Shown here: positions 8,980 through 16,569 of the stretch, one piece after another
Layout: every line of letters begins with the position of its first letter
Position numbering within the stretch: the stretch's first letter is position 1
Assembly: GCA_964358875.1 (NCBI GenBank)
Contig: CAYHRR010000008.1
Location: forward strand, 1-21,228
Direction of reading: 5' to 3'
Length of the DNA stretch: 21,228 nucleotides
From: an uncultured Planctomycetaceae bacterium
GTDB taxonomy: Bacteria; Planctomycetota; UBA1135; GCA-002686595
Made by a program: the position numbers and the translations under genes
The notes under the pieces: model-generated
The model's database searches: none
Seen by the model: the letters and a program-made list of their open reading frames with translations, nothing else
What the model was told of the DNA's origin: nothing

Positions 8980-9531
8980 ATGCCCTTACCGATGCAGGCC
9001 ATCTACCTCGGCTCCGCGATCGTCGGCGGAGGCTTGCTGCTGTTGCAGATGGCGATGTCGTTGCTGGGCGGCGAGCACGACGCCGGCGGCGACCACGAAT
9101 TGCACGCCGGCGATCTCGAGCACGAGTCGGGCGGCATGGGCTTCAGCTTCCGCGCCGTCGTCGCGTTCCTGACCTTCTTCGGCATCGGCGGCATGGCCTC
9201 GCTCAGCGCCGGATTGTCGACCACGGCGACGCTCGCCATCGCGGTCGGCTGCGGATCGCTCGCGTTTTGGCTGATCGGACTGGCGCTGCGCTCGTTCAAC
9301 AAGCTGCGCGCCTCGGGCAACGTTGAGATCGGCAACGCCGTCGGAGCGGAGGCGAAGGTCTATCTGACCGTCCCCGCCGGCGGCAGCGGCGAAGGCTCGG
9401 TCACGCTGACCATCCAAGGCCGCATCCAACAATTCAAGGCGCTGACCAAGGGCCGTGAACTCAAGACCGGCGCGCTGTGTCGCGTGGTCGCCGTCCGTTC
9501 GAGTGACACGCTCGAAATCGAGAGCGTCTGA
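8980..9531 (+). CDS. NfeD-like (YqiJ/YuaF-type) membrane protein with a C-terminal OB-fold, partner of flotillin
   Basis: A GGGAGA Shine-Dalgarno lies 6 nt upstream of the ATG. The N-terminal half is two hydrophobic helices (IYLGSAIVGGGLLLL; FRAVVAFLTFFGIGGMASL). The C-terminal segment GAEAKVYLTVPAGGSGEGSVTLTIQGRIQQFKALTKGRELKTGALCRVVAVRSSDTLEIE is a typical NfeD beta-barrel. A flotillin gene follows 17 nt downstream. Confidence 0.75.
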   Translation: MPLPMQAIYLGSAIVGGGLLLLQMAMSLLGGEHDAGGDHELHAGDLEHESGGMGFSFRAVVAFLTFFGIGGMASLSAGLSTTATLAIAVGCGSLAFWLIGLALRSFNKLRASGNVEIGNAVGAEAKVYLTVPAGGSGEGSVTLTIQGRIQQFKALTKGRELKTGALCRVVAVRSSDTLEIESV

Positions 9532-9548
9532 TTTCCCCAGGAGCATCC

Positions 9549-11360
9549 ATGCCGTTCGCACTGTTCTCCGCCGCGTTCCAACAGGACTTCATTAAGGACA
9601 ACATCTGGGTTGTCGTCGGCGCGATCGCCGTCCTGTTCTTCGGAGCGAGCTTGTTGCTGATGTTCGTGGCGCGCTACCGGCGCTGTCCGTCGAACAAGAT
9701 CCTGGTGATCTACGGCCGCGTCAGCAAAGGCGAGGCGGCGCGCTGCCTGCACGGCGGCGGCACCTTCGTGATGCCGTTGATCCAGGCCTACGACTACCTC
9801 GATCTCGAGCCGATCCAAATCGAAGTGCCGCTCAAGGGTGCGCTCTCGTCGGAGAACATCCGCGTCAACGTGCCGAGCTACTTCACGGTCGCGATCGGCA
9901 CCGCGCAGGGCGTGATGCAAAACGCCGCGATCCGTTTGCTCGGGCTGACGACCGAAGCGATCAAGAGCCAAGCGCTCGACATCATCTTCGGCCAGCTGCG
10001 CCAGGTGATCGCCTCGATGCCGATCGACGCGATCAACAAGAACCGCGACGAGTTCCTCAAGAACATCCAGATCTCGCTCGAGCCGGAGCTCGAGAAGATC
10101 GGGCTGGTGCTGATCAACGTCAACATCACCGACATCACCGACGAGTCGGGCTACATCGAAGCGCTCGGTCGCAAGGCGGCCAGCGAGGCGATTCGTCAGG
10201 CCGAAATCGACGTCGCCGAACAAACCAAGAAGGGCGCGATCGGCGTCGCTGCGGCCCAGCGCGACCAAGAAATCGAAGTGGCGCAGGCGACCAAGTTGCG
10301 CGAGATCGGCACCAAGGACGCCGAGCGCGAAATGGCGGTCAAGGTCGCCGAGCTCGGGCGCGCGCGTTCGGTCGGCGAGCAAAAGGCCGGCTTCGAACGC
10401 GAGGCACAGGTCAAGGACGCCGAGCAACAGATGCGCGTGCAGATCGCCAAGGCCAACGCGATGGCGGTCGCCGGCGAGAAGGACGCGCAGCGCGAAATGG
10501 CCGTGCGCGTCGCCGAGTTGGCCAAGGCCCAGGCGATCGGCGAGCAGACCGCGGCCTTCGAGCGCGAATCGCAGGTCAAGGAAGCCGAACGCCAGATGCG
10601 CATCCAGGTCGCCAACGCCAACGCCGAGGCGGTGTCGGGCGAGAACCTGTCGAAGGCGCTGATCGCCGCTTCCGAGGCCGGTCTCAAGGTCAAGCAGGCC
10701 GAGAGCTTCGCGCTCGGCGAGACCAAGCAGCGCCAAGCCCAGGCCGAAGTGTTCGCGGCGCAATACACGGCGGAGGCGGTGGCCGCGGAAGCGAACGGCA
10801 AGAAGATCGAGGCCGAGCAGCGCGCACAGCTCGAGGCGCCCGCGCGCGCGCAGAAGGCGCGCATCGTCGTCGAAGCGGAGGCCGAGGCCGAGAAGCTCAA
10901 GATCGAAGCGGCCGGCCGCGCGGCCGCGACCGTGCTGCAAGCCGAAGGCGATGCCAAGGCGACCTACGCGCGCCTCGAGGCGCAAGCGCGCGGCGAGTTC
11001 GAGATCCTCGCGCGGAAGGCGGAAGGTCTGCGCAAGCTCGTCGACGGCTGCGGCGGCGCCGACAAGGCCTTCCAGTTGATGATGCTCGAGCACCTCGACC
11101 ACTTGGCCGACAGCTCCGCCAAGGCCATCGCGAACATCAAGTTCGACAAGGTCACCGTGTGGGATCCGGGCACCGGCAAGGGCGGCGCGAGCGGTTTCCT
11201 GGCGAGCCTCGGGCAGTCCGTTCCGCCGCTGATGAACGTGATGCGTTCGATCGGCGGAGTCGATTTGCCCGAGTACCTCGGCAAGCTCGCGCCCGGCGCG
11301 ACCACCGATGCAGCCCCGACGGCCGCCACGGCAGCGCCGAAGGCCGACGCCAAGAAGTAG
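9549..11360 (+). CDS. Flotillin-like SPFH/band-7 protein (YqiK/FloT type)
   Basis: An N-terminal TM helix (IWVVVGAIAVLFFGASLLLMFV) is followed by an SPFH domain (ILVIYGRVSKG...FVMPLIQAYDYLDLEPIQIEVPLKGALSSENIRVNVPSYFTVAIGT). Long EA-rich coiled-coil repeats follow, including an internal ~165-bp tandem duplication (10326-10490 and 10491-10655). An AGGAG Shine-Dalgarno is present. Confidence 0.85.
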   Translation: MPFALFSAAFQQDFIKDNIWVVVGAIAVLFFGASLLLMFVARYRRCPSNKILVIYGRVSKGEAARCLHGGGTFVMPLIQAYDYLDLEPIQIEVPLKGALSSENIRVNVPSYFTVAIGTAQGVMQNAAIRLLGLTTEAIKSQALDIIFGQLRQVIASMPIDAINKNRDEFLKNIQISLEPELEKIGLVLINVNITDITDESGYIEALGRKAASEAIRQAEIDVAEQTKKGAIGVAAAQRDQEIEVAQATKLREIGTKDAEREMAVKVAELGRARSVGEQKAGFEREAQVKDAEQQMRVQIAKANAMAVAGEKDAQREMAVRVAELAKAQAIGEQTAAFERESQVKEAERQMRIQVANANAEAVSGENLSKALIAASEAGLKVKQAESFALGETKQRQAQAEVFAAQYTAEAVAAEANGKKIEAEQRAQLEAPARAQKARIVVEAEAEAEKLKIEAAGRAAATVLQAEGDAKATYARLEAQARGEFEILARKAEGLRKLVDGCGGADKAFQLMMLEHLDHLADSSAKAIANIKFDKVTVWDPGTGKGGASGFLASLGQSVPPLMNVMRSIGGVDLPEYLGKLAPGATTDAAPTAATAAPKADAKK

Positions 11361-11421
11361 CCCCAGGGAAAACGCGCGCACGCTCCGATCTTCGAAGCGG
11401 GGAACGCGCGGCGTATGAGGC

Positions 11422-11468
11422 GCGGGCGGAGGTCGTGACCGACGGCCTCCGCCCGCACTGTTTTCTCA
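11422..11468 (+). terminator. Rho-independent terminator of the NfeD-flotillin operon
   Basis: A 15-bp GC-rich stem gcgggcggaggtcgt / acggcctccgcccgc (one G-U pair) has loop gaccg and is followed by actGTTTTCTC. The T-tract is itself part of a gttttc-tcag-gaaaac mini-palindrome. Confidence 0.7.
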
Positions 11469-11654
11469 GGAAAACGAGCCGAAACCTGCGCTTTCGCGAG
11501 TGTCCATGGCGGCCGTAGCGCCGGACGGAGCGACACGGCATCCGGGAATCTGCGTGCCCGTTTTTTTCGAGCCCACCTAGATTCTGGCCTCGATCGCGCA
11601 GCGACAGCCCGTTTCAGCGGGCGGCGCGCGAAGGTCCGGCGAGGGAGGTGTGGG

Positions 11655-12449
11655 TTGGCCTCAATGCACAAACGAGACGGCGGCGAACGTCGGCTGAGCA
11701 GCGCGGTGGTGAACGCTGCGGTTTCGGAATCCGCGGCCGTTCAATCGAAAGAGCCGGCGTCGACGCAAGCGTCCGATGTGCATGCACCGTCACCTGCGTG
11801 TGCGCTCGACCGAGCGGGCCTTCTCGCGACCGACTCCGAGGCGGCGGACCGCGCTCCCTGCCTGCCGACGGCACCGCTGCATCCGGGGCGCAGCAGTGCG
11901 CCGAACGCGCCACCACGCGCGTGGCGTTCGATCCTCGCCGCAGCGAGCCCGCGTGAAGTGCTGGCGCGCTTGGTCGGCGGCGATCCGCTCGAGTTGCGAG
12001 CGCTGTGCGCGCGCGTGACCGACGAGCGGCGTTACCTGATCGACGTCGACCGCGTGTTCCTACGCGCGGCCGCGCGCACCGCTCGCTTCGCCTTGCGCTA
12101 CCACGGCCAGCCCGAGCTCGATGAGTGGCTCACGGAGAACATCGACGCCGCGTTGCTCGACATCGTCGCCGATGATTCCGAGGTCGGCGACGCACCGCGC
12201 GATCCCTCGGCGCTCGACGATTTCGCGCGCCCGCTCGGTCTCGACCCCAATCGCGTGCATTTGGCGTGCGCGGCCTTCAATCGACTTCCGAGCGCCGAAC
12301 GCAGCGCCTACTGGGTGCTGATGATTCGCCTGCGTTCGCTGGATGAGGCCGTCGTCGAACTCGGTGGGAGCGCGACCGAGATCGCGCGCAGCGCGCGGCG
12401 CGCCCTGGACACACTGGTCGCCGTCCTCGAGGGCAAGGAGAGCGCGTGA
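11655..12449 (+). CDS. Hypothetical regulator with a C-terminal sigma-70 region-4-like HTH; a divergent ECF-type sigma factor or HTH regulator
   Basis: The C-terminus RLPSAERSAYWVLMIRLRSLDEAVVELGGSATEIARSARRALDTL aligns with ECF sigma region 4 (LPERQREVFLLRYYEGLSYEEIAEILGISVGTVKSRLHRARKKL). The upstream segment VFLRAAARTARFALRYHGQPELDEWLTENI is weakly region-2-like. The N-terminal ~90 aa are low-complexity, so the true start is uncertain and could lie downstream. The stop overlaps the next gene's start. Confidence 0.5.
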   Translation: MASMHKRDGGERRLSSAVVNAAVSESAAVQSKEPASTQASDVHAPSPACALDRAGLLATDSEAADRAPCLPTAPLHPGRSSAPNAPPRAWRSILAAASPREVLARLVGGDPLELRALCARVTDERRYLIDVDRVFLRAAARTARFALRYHGQPELDEWLTENIDAALLDIVADDSEVGDAPRDPSALDDFARPLGLDPNRVHLACAAFNRLPSAERSAYWVLMIRLRSLDEAVVELGGSATEIARSARRALDTLVAVLEGKESA

Positions 12450-13174
12450 TGGGACCCTTCATGCAAGTTGGTGGACTGGGACTCGCGCAGACCGTGTCCA
12501 CGCTCCTCGAACATGCCGGTCCGCTGCACCTCGACGGACAGCCGCTGCGCGCGGCGATCGCATTGCGCTTCGACGGCTTGTGCATCGGCGCGCTCGATCG
12601 GCGTCTCGCCTGTGCGGAGCGTGAGTTGGCGCGGCTGCACGGTTTCGAAACGGCGCGCTTGCTGCGCGAGGCTGCTGCGCTGTGGAACGCATCGAGCTAC
12701 GCGAGCGGAGCGAGCGACGCGAATCGACCGAGCTACGCAAGCGGAGCGAGCGATGCGAATCGACCGAGCTACGCAAGCGGAGCGAGCGATGCGAATCGAT
12801 CGAGCTACGCGAGCGGAGCGCTGCGGCTCGCGACGCTGCGCATGGCCTTGCGCGAGGAACTGCGTTGCCAAGTCGCGGACGGCGTGCGCGCGACACCGCG
12901 CTTGCAGTCGATGATCGCGCGTTGCGCGAGTCTCGAGCCCGCCTCGTGGGACGCTGCGGAGCTGGCTCTCGCAGCGCTCGCGTTGCGCAACGACAGCGCC
13001 GCGCGCACGCGCCTCGGCGAGGTCCTGCTCGCCTGCGCGGGCCGGTCTGCACCCATGGACACCAACACTGAAGCGGAAGCGCCTACGCGGGCCGCCGCGA
13101 TGCTGCGCGCACTCGCGCCCTACCGCTGCTGCGCGTCGGTCGATTCGCGCAGAGTTCGAGTTGCCAACCGCTGA
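12446..13174 (+). CDS. Hypothetical alpha-helical protein with an in-frame SYASGASDANRP tandem repeat
   Basis: GTG-ATG sits at 12446/12449 and overlaps the upstream stop (translational coupling). The product is 242 aa. The 36-bp repeats translate in this frame to SYASGASDANRP x3.5, and the stop lies 16 nt before the ATG of the next gene. Confidence 0.5.
   Translation: MMGPFMQVGGLGLAQTVSTLLEHAGPLHLDGQPLRAAIALRFDGLCIGALDRRLACAERELARLHGFETARLLREAAALWNASSYASGASDANRPSYASGASDANRPSYASGASDANRSSYASGALRLATLRMALREELRCQVADGVRATPRLQSMIARCASLEPASWDAAELALAALALRNDSAARTRLGEVLLACAGRSAPMDTNTEAEAPTRAAAMLRALAPYRCCASVDSRRVRVANR
12695..12820 (+). repeat. Perfect-period 36-bp tandem repeat, 3.5 copies, inside the CDS
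   Basis: The copies are agctacgcgagcggagcgagcgacgcgaatcgaccg (12695-12730), agctacgcaagcggagcgagcgatgcgaatcgaccg (12731-12766), agctacgcaagcggagcgagcgatgcgaatcgatcg (12767-12802) and a partial agctacgcgagcggagcg (12803-12820). Copies differ by 1-2 nt. Confidence 0.9.
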
Positions 13175-15908
13175 CGAAAGCGAGTTCCCCATGCATCCGT
13201 GCGACAACCTCGAATTGCTGTTGCCCAACGTCGCGCCGACGCGCCTCGAGCGCGCGCGCAAGTTGACCACGATGTTGCGGCTGTTGACCGACGACGCACG
13301 GCGCGCGCCGGCGTCGAGCGTGCGCGCCAACCTTGATCGCGCTCGCGGCGAACTCGAGTTGCACACGCGCACGCGTCTGCGCGAAGGCGTGGTCGATCTG
13401 CTGCGCCGGCACCTGCTCGCCGACGTCGGCGTCGACAGCTTCGCGTGGTACGGCGAGCTGCAATCGACAGCGTCTTGCGCGTGGAGCGTGATCGAGGAAT
13501 ACCGCGACGAGCTCACCTGGCTGCCGCATGTGCCGGAGCCGAATGAAACTGCGGCCGCGGTCGCAGAACGCTTGCTCGCGACTTTGGAGCGTCTGGGTGT
13601 GACGCCGCGAGAGGTGGATTTGTGGCGTGCCCGTGTGCTGCGAGCGAACTCCGGTCCGGAGTGCGGGGAAGCTGCCTTTCGAGAGTTGCTCGATGCCGCG
13701 CTTCGAGCGGCGCGCGCACCGGATGCCCGTGTGTTGTGCGGCGCGGTCGAGTGCCTGCTCGATCGCGGAGCCGTGCGCGCGGCGCGGCACCTGCTCGACG
13801 AACACGCCGCGTGGTCCTCGAACAACGAACGTGTCGCGCGCTTGCGCAGTTGGACGGTGTTGTTGCAAGAGGATGAGAACGGCGCGCGCAGCGCCGTCGT
13901 AGGTCATGGGGCGTGGCGCGGACGGATTCCGCAGTCGCTCGTCGAGTTGCGCGGACGGCGCAGCGCCTGGCTGCCGCTCCTGGCCGGCGTTGCTCCGCAG
14001 CCGGCGCTCGCCTGCGCCGGCACGTCCGAGCGCAGCGTGTCGCGCAAGGCGGTCGGCGCACTCGTGCTGGCCGTGTTTGCGCTGCGCGAAGTGGGGCGCC
14101 ACGAATACCTGGACGGCGACATCGCTCCTGGACTGCGTGAGCGCATGCCCGATTGGTTGCGCGGTCTCGATGGCGCATGCAGTGAGCCTTCGTCGCCCGA
14201 GCATTGCGCCGTCGTCGAGGCGCGCGTCGCGATCGTGCATCGCAGCGCGCCCGGCGAGCTGCGCAGCGCCGTGAGCGCCGCGCATGTCCAAGCCCTTGCC
14301 GTCGTGCCCATCGTCGACGACGCCGGCGAAGTCGCCGGTTGGCTGCGTTTGGAGTGGGATCACCATCTGGTGCCGTCCGTGCGCGCGCTCGAACGCTTGG
14401 CCTTCGCGTGGCGCGAGCGCGTCCTTGCGCAGCGCGCGAACGATCAGGCCTCGTCGGCATCCCACGCGCCGCATTCGGGGTCGTCCGACATCGAGTGGGC
14501 GACGCCTGCGGTCGAAGGCGCCTGCGCCGAGGTGTTGCGCGCGCTTGTTTCCGAAGTCGGCATGAAGACGGCGCAACGACGTTGGTGGGGCTTCGAGGTC
14601 AGCGGGACGACGTGCCGCCTCGCTGCAGAGGGCGGAAGCGCGCTCGGTGAGGGCGAGCTCGGCGGTTCCCGTGCGCTGCGGCGCGCCTTGCGCAGCGGCA
14701 GCGTCGTGCAGTTCGACGAGCCGGACTGCGAACTGTCGATCCGCAGGGACGCGGCCTCGGGCGTGGTGCTGCCGCTGCTCGTGCGCGGAGAGCTGTGCGG
14801 ACTGCTCGCGGTCGAATCCGCGCGGCGCAAGGACTTTCCCGCAGCCCTGACGGCGCGTTGGACCGAGCGCGTGCGTTGGAATGCGCTCGATCTGCGCGTG
14901 GCGCGTTTTCGCGAGTGGCACAGCCTCGTGTTCGACCACGACGTGCACTTCGCGTCGCACACGGCGCAGAGTGCGACGTGGGTCGAACAGGTGCTTGCTG
15001 CTGCAGCTTCCGATTCCGCGTGCACGTTGATCGGACCCAGCGGCAGCGGCAAGCACGTCGTCGCGCGCTGGCTGCACTTCGAGCGTGGCGCTGCGCCGCG
15101 TTTCGAGAGCTTCACGTGCGGCGACGACGAGCGCGCGTTGTGGGGGGCAGGCGCGGACGATGAACCGATGCTCAGGCGTGCACTCGGCGGCACGCTCGTG
15201 TTGGAGGACATCGAGCGCCTTTCCGTTGCCGGTCAAACGCGGCTGTTGTCGGCCTTGGAACGCCAAGCCGCGCAGCCGGCGCGCTCGGTGCGTTGGGTCG
15301 TCACTTCGAAGCTGGCCCTCGAGCGCTCGATCGCTGCCGGCACCCTGCGCGAGGATCTGGGCCGCCGTCTCGAGCGTCTGCAAATCCGAGTGCCGGCGCT
15401 CGACGAGCGCCGGCCCGAGCTCCTGCGCATCGTCGCGTTGCTCACGCGGCGCTTCGCGCGCGAGGAGGGCGTGCCGCCGCCGCGTTTCGACGACGAAGCG
15501 CTCGCCATGTTGTGGCGCCAACCGTGGCGCGCCAACCTGCGCGAGCTCGAGAACCTCGTCTTCAAGCTCGTGCTGTTCCACGCGGGACAAGACGTGCAGG
15601 TCGAGCACGTCGAAGCACTCGCGCGCCGGCACGGACTCGAGCTGCTTCCGCGCGTGTCGTCCCGCTCTCCGGACGCGGAATTGGTACGCGCTGCGCTGGC
15701 GTCCACTGCGAACTTGCGCGGCACGATCAACAAGACGCGCGCCGCGCTCTACCTCGGCTGGGATCCCGACACGCTCGTGTCGCGCATGACCGAACTCGGG
15801 CTGGCGGTGGGCCGCGTCGACCTTGCCGGTTTGACGACGACCCAGAGGTCAACCAGCGAGTTGCCGTCGGCACCGAAGGACGCTGCTTCGAGCGACGATG
15901 TGCGCTGA
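13161..15908 (+). CDS. Large multidomain regulator: N-terminal helical region, GAF-like regions, a sigma-54-activator-type AAA+ domain with degenerate motifs, and a C-terminal Fis-type HTH
   Basis: The AAA+ core LIGPSGSGKHVVARWLHFER...GGTLVLEDIERLSVAGQTRLLSALE parallels NtrC GESGTGKE...GGTLFLDEIGEL...Q.KLLRVL. The GAFTGA loop is absent (replaced by ERALWGAGADDEP), and the Walker B reads LEDIE instead of LDEI. A C-terminal Fis-type HTH is present (LRGTINKTRAALYLGWDPDTLVSRMTELGL). GAF-like stretches are visible (e.g. VVPIVDDAGEVAGWLRLEWD; VVLPLLVRGELCGLLAVESA). TTG at 13161 is one possible start; ATG at 13191 is the alternative. Confidence 0.75.
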   Translation: MPTADESEFPMHPCDNLELLLPNVAPTRLERARKLTTMLRLLTDDARRAPASSVRANLDRARGELELHTRTRLREGVVDLLRRHLLADVGVDSFAWYGELQSTASCAWSVIEEYRDELTWLPHVPEPNETAAAVAERLLATLERLGVTPREVDLWRARVLRANSGPECGEAAFRELLDAALRAARAPDARVLCGAVECLLDRGAVRAARHLLDEHAAWSSNNERVARLRSWTVLLQEDENGARSAVVGHGAWRGRIPQSLVELRGRRSAWLPLLAGVAPQPALACAGTSERSVSRKAVGALVLAVFALREVGRHEYLDGDIAPGLRERMPDWLRGLDGACSEPSSPEHCAVVEARVAIVHRSAPGELRSAVSAAHVQALAVVPIVDDAGEVAGWLRLEWDHHLVPSVRALERLAFAWRERVLAQRANDQASSASHAPHSGSSDIEWATPAVEGACAEVLRALVSEVGMKTAQRRWWGFEVSGTTCRLAAEGGSALGEGELGGSRALRRALRSGSVVQFDEPDCELSIRRDAASGVVLPLLVRGELCGLLAVESARRKDFPAALTARWTERVRWNALDLRVARFREWHSLVFDHDVHFASHTAQSATWVEQVLAAAASDSACTLIGPSGSGKHVVARWLHFERGAAPRFESFTCGDDERALWGAGADDEPMLRRALGGTLVLEDIERLSVAGQTRLLSALERQAAQPARSVRWVVTSKLALERSIAAGTLREDLGRRLERLQIRVPALDERRPELLRIVALLTRRFAREEGVPPPRFDDEALAMLWRQPWRANLRELENLVFKLVLFHAGQDVQVEHVEALARRHGLELLPRVSSRSPDAELVRAALASTANLRGTINKTRAALYLGWDPDTLVSRMTELGLAVGRVDLAGLTTTQRSTSELPSAPKDAASSDDVR

Positions 15909-15913
15909 CGGTG

Positions 15914-15936
15914 CCGACCGCAAAGGTCGGTTCTCG
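15914..15936 (+). terminator. Weak hairpin just after the regulator stop
   Basis: The hairpin ccgacc-gcaaa-ggtcgg is followed by ttctcg. The stem is short and the U-tract poor. Confidence 0.3.
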
Positions 15937-15990
15937 AACGGCCCAGGTCGAGCGCAGATCTGAACTGCGTTCTGATTCGGCATACCGGCG

Positions 15991-16025
15991 GAACAAAAGA
16001 GAGGCCCGATCGGGGTGATCGGGCC
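15991..16025 (-). terminator. Terminator-like hairpin with a T-tract on the minus strand
   Basis: A 9-bp stem ggcccgatc / gatcgggcc has loop ggggt (16003-16025). On the minus strand it is followed by TCTCTTTTGTT. No annotated minus-strand gene lies upstream of it, so it may terminate an unannotated RNA. Confidence 0.4.
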
Positions 16026-16094
16026 CCTCCCTTTGACTTCCCAGGGGGGAAGGTCCGGCTCGCTCGTATGGCCCCCCCGGGCATGCGCTCGAGC

Positions 16095-16125
16095 CGCGAG
16101 GTCTTGCGACCTCGCGCGTGTTTTT
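16095..16125 (+). terminator. Intrinsic-terminator-like hairpin plus T5 on the plus strand, inside a 660-bp non-coding region
   Basis: A 9-bp stem cgcgaggtc / gacctcgcg has loop ttgc and is followed by cgtgTTTTTac. Confidence 0.5.
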
Positions 16126-16569
16126 ACGGCATCTGGCGCGTTGCACGTTAGGAAATCATCCAAAACGTTTCAGACGCGAAACGTCACACGGGTGCCGTCC
16201 GGCGCCTGTGGCTTGGTCGCTTCACGAGGTAGGAGCAGCGTCGGTGTTCGCGCTCCGCGCGCTGCCTTCAATCTGCGCGGCGCCACCGGGATCGCGGCGC
16301 GTTGGCTGTACCGAATCGTCGGCGTTGGCCACCGAAGCTCGCGCCGGCCGGCGTGCGCGAGCACGAGCTCGGGCGAGGCCGCGTCGCGTGTCCAGTCTCC
16401 GAGCGCGCTCGAGGAGCTCGACCTACGCAGCGCTCCGAACCGTCCTCAGTGACGCACGCCGCGGCACCGGTGAATCCTCACGCGCGCGCGGTCGCTACGA
16501 GCGCGCCGCGCGAGCTGCGCGTGGTGCCGCAGCCTCGACCTTGGTACCTGACACGCACCAACGCGTGCC

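Follow-up and report, generated by a model that had tools for sequence, protein, structure and literature searches.

In a 21,228-nt stretch of contig CAYHRR010000008.1 (contig GC 69%) from an uncultured Planctomycetaceae bacterium, hereafter the window, three consecutive genes form a lineage-specific, and probably autoregulated, regulatory operon of uncultured Planctomycetota. Gene 1 is predicted to encode a divergent sigma factor of the extracytoplasmic function (ECF) type, gene 2 encodes a fast-evolving soluble helical protein resembling tetratricopeptide repeat (TPR) proteins, and gene 3 encodes a descendant of the bacterial enhancer-binding proteins (bEBPs), the family of the sigma-54 activators. 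The invariant unit of this operon is gene 1 plus gene 3, with gene 2 as a facultative, dispensable member, and we propose that the products of genes 1 and 3 are regulatory partners.

The three open reading frames (ORFs) are closely packed. The hexamer GTGATG at 12446-12451 contains the one base common to the TGA stop of gene 1 and the ATG of gene 2, and a gap of 16 nt separates the gene 2 stop (13174) from the gene 3 ATG (13191). A preliminary description of this DNA, made from the sequence alone, had reported these overlapping and abutting ORFs together with a terminator of the flotillin gene ahead of the module; the ORF calls bear out its coordinates and the operon-like layout, and the terminator was found as well. 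It follows the end of the flotillin gene (11360) as a hairpin with a 15-bp stem containing 12 GC pairs (fold -59.1 kcal/mol, z = -4.1) and a run of T. The 905-aa gene 3 product starting at ATG 13191 is identical to the database protein P0001. The start codon of gene 1 is uncertain (TTG 11655 or ATG 11664), since exact look-up with either candidate start found no entry in the protein collection. The features of the locus are collected in Table 1.

Table 1. Coordinates of the three genes, their domains and motifs, and the associated DNA elements in the window
Feature	Position	Strand	Remarks
Distal cis element CCG-N6-GAAG(C/T)GGGGAA(T/C)	11385..11406	+	window sequence CCGATCTTCGAAGCGGGGAACG
Terminator-like hairpin and T-run	11422..11465 (hairpin to 11456)	+	3' of the flotillin gene; upstream boundary of the operon
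-10-like element CTAGATT	11577..11583	+	variant of CTAGACTG, TANNNT type
Gene 1	11655..12449	+	264 aa; divergent ECF-type sigma-like protein
Gene 1 conserved core	11919-12446	+	sigma-2-like and sigma-4-like
Gene 2	12449..13174 (or from 12446)	+	241-242 aa; soluble helical, C-terminal part TPR-like
Tandem repeat, 36 nt x 3.6	12693..12820	+	SYASGASDANRP units; within the variable linker of gene 2
Gene 3	13191..15908 (ORF opens 13161)	+	905 aa from ATG 13191; bEBP-derived regulator
Gene 3 N-terminal helices and TPR-like helical-repeat domain (aa 1-270)	13191..14000	+	
Gene 3 GAF-like segment (aa 280-410)	14028..14420	+	invariant columns; weak profile match
Gene 3 GAF domain (aa 450-575)	14538..14915	+	Pfam GAF 25.3 bits (cut-off 22.4)
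Gene 3 bEBP-type AAA+ and lid (aa 591-812)	14961..15626	+	no GAFTGA loop
Gene 3 Walker A GPSGSGKH (aa 615-622)	15033-15056	+	
Gene 3 degenerate Walker B LVLEDIE (VLEDIE aa 670-675)	15195-15215	+	DE replaced by ED
Gene 3 Fis-type helix-turn-helix (aa 834-871)	15690..15803	+	atypical, nearly invariant recognition helix NKTRAALYLGWDPDTLVSRM
Terminator-like hairpin and T-run	16095..16125 (hairpin to 16116)	+	~190 nt past the gene 3 stop; downstream boundary of the operon

Domain structure of the gene 1 and gene 3 products

The conserved part of gene 1 consists of its C-terminal ~176 aa, which comprise ten helices arranged as a sigma-2-like domain, a short linker and a sigma-4-like domain, and is preceded by a variable, low-complexity N-terminal part of ~88 aa. 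The preliminary description had recognized an ECF-sigma-like region-4 helix-turn-helix (HTH) in this protein. We confirmed this at the family level, where the Pfam model Sigma70_r4_2 was matched by 19 of 62 members at E <= 1 (best 1.8e-5), the signal in the window protein itself being sub-threshold. Furthermore, the AlphaFold2 model of the core, with a predicted local distance difference test (pLDDT) of 92.8 and a predicted TM-score (pTM) of 0.85, adds a sigma-2-like domain to the region-4 HTH. Compared with isolated sigma-2 domains, gene 1 scored 7.7 against SigC, 7.5 against sigma-E region 2 and 6.8 against RpoS region 2, and the likeness extended to whole ECF sigma factors in complexes (AlgU-MucA, SigH and EcfG-NepR). 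A profile alignment by hhalign to E. coli RpoE was statistically weak (E 0.014, probability 3%). It was nevertheless collinear, extending between regions 2.2 and 4.2 (from the FRG..WL segment to the LP..R..F......G.S..EIA segment), and serves as a register check only.

The protein has the region 4.1-4.2 HTH of ECF (group IV) sigma factors and, lacking sigma-3 and region 1.1, their minimal two-domain organization (a 176-aa core with a variable N-terminal extension). Its sigma-4 recognition helix is strongly basic and conserved (A-T-E-I-A-R-R-A-R-R-A-L). According to the model, gene 1 would thus have a two-domain ECF fold too divergent for the Pfam sigma-2 model; by its predicted structure it qualifies as an ECF sigma factor, by its sequence it does not. 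The family counts 971 representatives at 50% clustering (E <= 1e-3), and ECF censuses based on hidden Markov models (HMMs) probably miss it, because its sigma-2 domain draws no Pfam match.

The gene 3 product is composed, in this order, of a TPR-like domain, a GAF-like segment, a GAF domain, a bEBP-type AAA+ domain and an atypical Fis-type HTH, and this architecture is common to its family (30 members). The AAA+ region was matched by the Pfam models Sigma54_activat (53.3 bits, cut-off 20.2, residues 591-732), Sigma54_activ_2 (56.8 bits, residues 598-737) and AAA_lid_14 (42.7 bits, cut-off 27, residues 739-812), with Sigma54_activat and the lid model recovered in 29-30 of the 30 members. The GAF domain, which is best matched over residues 487-549, was recognized by GAF models in 22 of the 30. 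HTH_8 scored below its cut-off in the window protein (15.9 bits against 22, residues 834-868) and was matched by 25 of the 30 at E <= 0.1 (best 5.1e-5). The bEBP architecture attributed to gene 3 in the preliminary description is therefore corroborated; among solved structures, its nearest relatives are FlrC and NtrX, the latter also devoid of GAFTGA.

To count residues at the functional positions of the AAA+ domain, we aligned a non-redundant set of 74 family members to three canonical EBPs. No member (0/74) carries a GAFTGA-like motif (G[AS]F[TS]G[AG]), in agreement with the absence already noted for the window protein, where ERALWGAGADDE occupies the position at which ESELFGHEKGAFTGA is expected. 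The loop-1 region is variable and 5-27 residues shorter, and the segment from Walker A to Walker B measures 35-57 aa as against 62 in canonical EBPs. Both Walker motifs had been called non-canonical. This holds for Walker B, which reads ED instead of DE, whereas Walker A of the window protein is close to canonical: the P-loop GxxxxGK is intact and matches GPSGSGKE of FlrC except for the last residue.

Across the family, the Walker A lysine position holds K in 60 members and R in 13, and the residue that follows is E in 5 and S/T in 15. The Walker B aspartate position is occupied by E (29), D (22) or other residues (22), and the catalytic glutamate position by D (36), G (18), E (7), H (4) or R (4). 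The arginines at the arginine-finger and sensor II positions, R720, R726 and R784, are all present in the window protein and occur in 44, 54 and 59 of ~73 members, respectively, being common and not invariant. On the other hand, the family strictly keeps the TPR-like N-domain, a GAF region and the unusual HTH, and the lid motif WRQPWxGN is nearly invariant. Because this motif and NKTRAALYLGWDPDTLVARM in the HTH are nearly invariant while the catalytic and GAFTGA positions are degenerate, selection appears to keep the fold, the lid and the HTH, and not ATP hydrolysis or sigma-54 contact.

Gene 3 thus reads as an EBP descendant that has no GAFTGA sigma-54 loop and whose catalytic residues are unconserved across the family. 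These results support the earlier suggestion of a sigma-54-independent or ATPase-impaired pseudo-EBP, with the Walker B and arginine-finger positions under relaxed constraint in addition to the missing GAFTGA. Gene 3 should not be filed as a sigma-54 activator, despite the NCBI naming of some homologues, as it has neither the GAFTGA nor the Walker B DE by which such an activator is defined. Instead, its place is within the known minority of EBP derivatives that work independently of sigma-54, of which it is a more degenerate form.

The N-terminal region of gene 3, previously described as having no obvious family, turned out to be TPR-like, followed by a GAF-like segment. Pfam gave no GAF match in this segment (aa 280-410), and a profile-profile comparison with the second GAF domain gave a weak match (E = 0.087) over the usual C-terminal strands. 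From its sequence it looks like a further GAF-like domain invisible to Pfam, although the signal is weak. The segment contains a nearly invariant motif, G-W-x3-E-x2-HH-x2-P (aa 383-395, window 14337-14375), which could be a candidate metal- or ligand-binding site. A GAF domain that binds Zn/Fe has been described in PexR (PMC12754779).

In the C-terminal HTH, the first helix (NKTRAA) is canonical and Fis-like, whereas the recognition helix reads WDPDTLVARM as opposed to the canonical (S/P)R.TL.RKL: the canonical arginine is replaced by a proline flanked by two invariant aspartates, an uncommon feature in a helix that reads DNA. No stretch of the whole protein is more conserved than NKTRAALYLGWDPDTLV(S/A)RM (aa 847-866, window 15729-15788), which lies here.

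Conserved linkage of genes 1 and 3 and the variable slot of gene 2

Homologues of genes 1 and 3 were found in metagenome-assembled genomes (MAGs) of Planctomycetota only. A scan of one genome per species yielded 111 relatives of gene 3, for which 78 loci were retrieved; linkage was then counted by HMM searches of these loci and 7 earlier ones, 74 of which include upstream DNA of 900 nt or more. Gene 1 lies directly 5' of gene 3 and on the same strand in all 74 of these Planctomycetota loci, and this adjacency persists at gene 3 identities as low as 31-35%. The identical three-gene order with stop/start overlaps was present in all six long Planctomycetota MAG contigs that we examined.

The slot between the two genes is less constant. 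It holds an ORF of 121-440 aa in ~62 loci, usually with its start 4 nt ahead of the stop of gene 1, and is empty (gap <=111 nt) in 9. Moreover, the neighbours vary, through the insertion of nfeD and flotillin genes upstream and of variable genes between gene 3 and queA, while the gene 1-gene 3 pair persists. Because the adjacency is complete, the slot ORF is missing from nine loci and the neighbourhood changes, we regard genes 1 and 3 as the unit that is conserved. Co-occurrence of the complete trio, which the preliminary description had proposed to check, thus holds for genes 1 and 3 and not for gene 2. The nine loci without gene 2 (L035, L044, L051, L059, L062, L073, L074, L075 and L083), in which gene 1 abuts gene 3, belong to a divergent subclade whose gene 3 is ~31-39% identical to that of the window.

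Gene 2 of the window matched no Pfam or NCBIfam model, and a word-based search returned three close homologues. The syntenic ORFs share the helices ELxRVHxxExARLL and W..EL...DG and the hairpin WP.A..LA.AA, beyond which a helical extension, different in length between the ORFs, gives weak TPR matches in some members. Among 59 orthologues we obtained weak TPR-family matches only and no anti-sigma domain, and in gene 2 itself we recognized neither an anti-sigma domain of the zf-HC2/RsrA, RskA, NepR or CnrY type nor a transmembrane segment. Its only anti-sigma-like trait is its position downstream of a sigma-like gene with a start/stop overlap.

Gene 2 had initially been called a repeat protein, a label that we abandon: the repeat is a strain-level 36-nt array in a variable linker and does not define the protein. 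Its copy number differs in a homologue with 80% identity (P0105), and the array is absent from the other orthologues. At the same site, locus L013 (4662-5981) carries an unrelated low-complexity insert with long DAA(R/G)-type repeats. The linker is thus a place where different low-complexity or tandem-repeat inserts accumulate in different genomes.

The genes that flank the module are housekeeping genes. Within the window, genes for TamB, an Omp85-family protein, a FabI-like reductase (minus strand) and flotillin lie upstream, and genes for QueA, ThiE and an FG-GAP protein lie downstream. In most related genomes, fabI and gene 1 are divergent neighbours with one common intergenic region; the nfeD-like and flotillin genes (window 8980-11360) are an insertion between them that occurs in a minority of the related genomes (L004, L005, L007 and L015 were compared, among others). 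The 660 nt between gene 3 and queA (15909-16569) contain the downstream hairpin and no gene recognizable by Pfam, and in relatives this slot is taken by variable genes encoding MptA_B-family, Exo_endo_phos or unknown proteins. A search of the whole window against Rfam matched no family. We also considered a defence system, which we rejected: PADLOC returned generic RtcR-type AAA-HTH matches for gene 3 only, and no sign of defence.

DNA elements upstream of gene 1

Two conserved elements precede gene 1. The distal one, 21 nt long and of the form CCG-N6-GAA(G)TGGGGAAT, was studied by regular-expression and position weight matrix (PWM) scans of both strands over 1.05 Mb. The strict pattern CCG-N6-GAAGTGGGGAAT is unique within the window (11385-11404). 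All its matches in the 1.05 Mb lie on the plus strand, at one site per locus, and precede the conserved gene 1 core by 110-545 nt, and none was found elsewhere on either strand; for the half pattern, ~1.5 occurrences are expected by chance. With the PWM, ~60 of the ~66 loci with enough upstream DNA scored above the maximum of 300 background segments, although 47 of these ~60 sites had been used for training and only the remainder is an independent test. Where nfeD and flotillin genes have been inserted, the element accompanies gene 1 and not fabI. Three of the loci without gene 2 (L073, L074 and L083) carry a variant, CCGTG..CATTGCGGGGA.

The second element is promoter-like. The 8-mer CTAGACTG occurs 17 times in the 1.05 Mb, and 16 of these occurrences sit upstream of gene 1. 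It is spaced 126-189 nt from the distal element, most often 152-157 nt, with 179 nt in the window. In relatives, a weak CGG(A/T)(A/T)TC is found 12-13 nt further upstream, and the GGAAT-N15-GAC arrangement there is close to ECF promoter geometry. The fabI gene of relatives carries its own CTAGGATCC on the opposite strand, a version absent from the window, and this suggests that cTAGnnT is a -10 consensus typical of the lineage.

In the window, the flotillin terminator sits between the distal and the promoter-like element. For this reason, an upstream site acting at the DNA level fits the distal element better than a promoter does, and the spacing of ~150 nt recalls, by analogy, the upstream activating sequences of bEBPs. 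Other identities for the distal motif were tried and rejected. A sigma-54 promoter (GG-N10-GC) is not fitted by the downstream positions, the conserved blocks are too close for a -35/-10 pair (11 nt from CCG to GGGGAAT), and pairing of the N6 with GGGG in a hairpin finds no covariation, the N6 positions having near-zero information. The first k-mers obtained upstream of gene 1, CGCTTGTT and others, were discarded as fabI coding sequence.

Proposed partnership and its relation to known regulators

ECF sigma factors and bEBPs are two main bacterial signal-transduction families. To our knowledge, they have so far met only in cascades, with HrpRS activating hrpL through sigma-54. Since the Planctomycetota operon is strictly conserved, it suggests a direct partnership between a sigma-like protein and an EBP relative. 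On balance, we lean towards the view that an ECF-like sigma factor is joined here in one module by a pseudo-EBP that works independently of sigma-54. The evidence for the parts and for the linkage of genes 1 and 3 is solid, while the mechanism outlined below is one that we infer.

We propose for gene 1 the role of a dedicated sigma factor or, at the minimum, that of a DNA reader of the sigma-4 type. Gene 3 would be its signal-sensing partner, sensing a ligand through the GAF region and working without sigma-54 and without ATP-driven remodelling. Its TPR surface might serve to hold or deliver gene 1; additionally or alternatively, gene 3 might occupy the distal GGGGAAT element, which lies ~150 nt upstream of the promoter, with a geometry like that of an enhancer. 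The gene 2 product may modulate the contact between the two as a soluble anti-sigma-like adaptor. Precedents exist for several of these steps: bEBPs without GAFTGA act at sigma-70 promoters, some of them needing ATP binding only (Rhodobacter capsulatus and Caulobacter NtrC, NtrX, VpsR), and ECF42 sigma factors require a TPR extension for activity. A more specific version, which we put forward tentatively and hold to be rather doubtful, would have the dead AAA+ ring serve as a platform gated by a ligand of the GAF region, its TPR and pseudo-HTH surfaces sequestering the sigma factor or delivering it to an enhancer-like site ~150 bp upstream of the promoter.

Several observations weigh against the partnership. 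No sequence model places gene 1 of the window in the sigma-70 family: the window protein matched no Pfam or NCBIfam model, none of the 62 family members matched Sigma70_r2, and the family profile found nothing among PDB sequences even at E <= 10. DNA binding by gene 3 is uncertain, because the canonical arginine is missing from its recognition helix, where two invariant aspartates are found. Nucleotide binding may persist in the gene 3 family, the Walker A lysine being kept in 60 of 73 members. In addition, the GGGGAAT element has the geometry of neither a standard -35/-10 pair nor a dyad operator. Finally, the whole region from fabI to queA is syntenic across these MAGs, so that common descent accounts for some of the co-occurrence.

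The strongest alternative, which we consider possible but unlikely, is that gene 1 is no working sigma factor and instead a sigma-derived HTH protein or a sigma mimic, which joins genes 3 and 2 in a heteromeric transcription factor or a partner-switch module. Recognition of the target promoters would then fall to the housekeeping sigma factor or to a different ECF sigma factor encoded elsewhere. The lack of any Sigma70_r2 signal throughout the family speaks for this view, partner switching by PhyR-NepR-EcfG is an established precedent in which the sigma-like domain of PhyR is used as a mimic, and the CTAGACTG of the operon resembles the CTAGGAT of fabI, so that both may be of the housekeeping TANNNT type. 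However, gene 1 has no receiver or other switch domain, its sigma-4 recognition helix is basic and conserved, neither of which a pure mimic needs, and no second, canonical ECF gene was consistently close by in the six contigs examined.

We consider it improbable that gene 3 is a lone sigma-54-independent regulator, comparable to TyrR, VpsR or NtrX, which acts at the distal element on the operon and perhaps on the divergent fabI as well, with genes 1 and 2 as cargo or targets. GAFTGA-less bEBPs that act alone at sigma-70 promoters are known, and the distance of ~150 nt between the distal and the promoter-like element is like that of a bEBP upstream activating sequence; in most relatives the distal element falls within the common fabI/gene 1 intergenic region. 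Yet it is not a dyad and stays with gene 1 when fabI is separated, the recognition helix of gene 3 is atypical, and the 74/74 adjacency with stop/start coupling persists while other neighbours change. It is very hard to credit that gene 3 is a conventional sigma-54 activator whose contact loop happens to be unusual and to whose action gene 1 is unrelated: the above-threshold Sigma54_activat match and the NCBI name 'sigma 54-interacting transcriptional regulator' on some homologues are outweighed by the absence of GAFTGA from all 74 members with a shortened, variable loop-1 region, by a catalytic Glu in 7 members only and Walker A Lys and arginine-finger positions that are not invariant, and by conserved upstream elements that do not fit a GG-N10-GC promoter.

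If the partnership of genes 1 and 3 is real, the ECF repertoire would gain a new type of regulator that re-uses the scaffold of sigma-54 activators, and the partnership would provide an example of an AAA+ remodelling machine that decays into a scaffold or sensor. It would also expose a sigma family missed by HMM-based ECF censuses (~970 representative clusters with no Pfam sigma-2 match). The conserved upstream elements are concrete DNA probes for these ideas.

The preliminary description had called the pairing of a sigma-like with an EBP-like protein undescribed, and our search of the full-text literature agrees: we found no such operon described, and what came closest were cascades like that of HrpRS and hrpL. 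Neither the ECF re-classification paper, in its main text, nor a review of non-canonical ECF mechanisms mentions Sigma54/EBP-type neighbours; both name AAA ATPases for ECF257 only. In HrpR/HrpS and HrpL of Pseudomonas syringae, EBP-type proteins and an ECF sigma factor do belong to one pathway; however, HrpR/HrpS are not co-transcribed with hrpL and have kept GAFTGA and ATPase activity.

The module shares with ECF (group IV) systems that have soluble partners (EcfG-NepR-PhyR, ECF42) a predicted sigma-2 plus sigma-4 fold without sigma-3 and a directly downstream, translationally coupled gene, as found for cognate anti-sigma factors. A GGAAT-like motif upstream of the operon resembles autoregulated ECF promoters, and TPR modules are implicated in the control of sigma activity in ECF42 too, although those of the Planctomycetota module are in trans. 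In contrast to these systems, gene 1 has no Pfam sigma-2 signal and a sub-threshold sigma-4 signal in the window, and its partner is an EBP-derived TPR-GAF-AAA+-HTH protein in place of a class I-III anti-sigma domain, a kinase or a C-terminal extension.

Likewise, gene 3 resembles the GAFTGA-less bEBPs (R. capsulatus NtrC, Caulobacter NtrC, NtrX, VpsR, TyrR) in its bEBP AAA+ core with loop 1 deleted, its N-terminal sensory domains and its C-terminal HTH, Fis-like in the first helix, and it aligns with NtrX without gaps across the missing loop. It differs from them in ATPase catalytic residues that are degenerate family-wide, a sensory part made of TPR and tandem GAF-like domains and not of a receiver, an acidic recognition helix (GWDPDTL), and the invariable pairing with its own sigma-like protein. 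FlrC of Vibrio cholerae, the best PDB match to its AAA+ domain (E 2e-20), has the same GPSGSGK Walker A variant, REDL..RL and WPGN.REL motifs and lid; unlike gene 3, FlrC is a sigma-54 activator with GAFTGA, a DE Walker B and a receiver domain. Taken together, the module is not categorically new; its novelty lies in the type of partner that an ECF-like sigma factor has here and in the fate of the bEBP scaffold.

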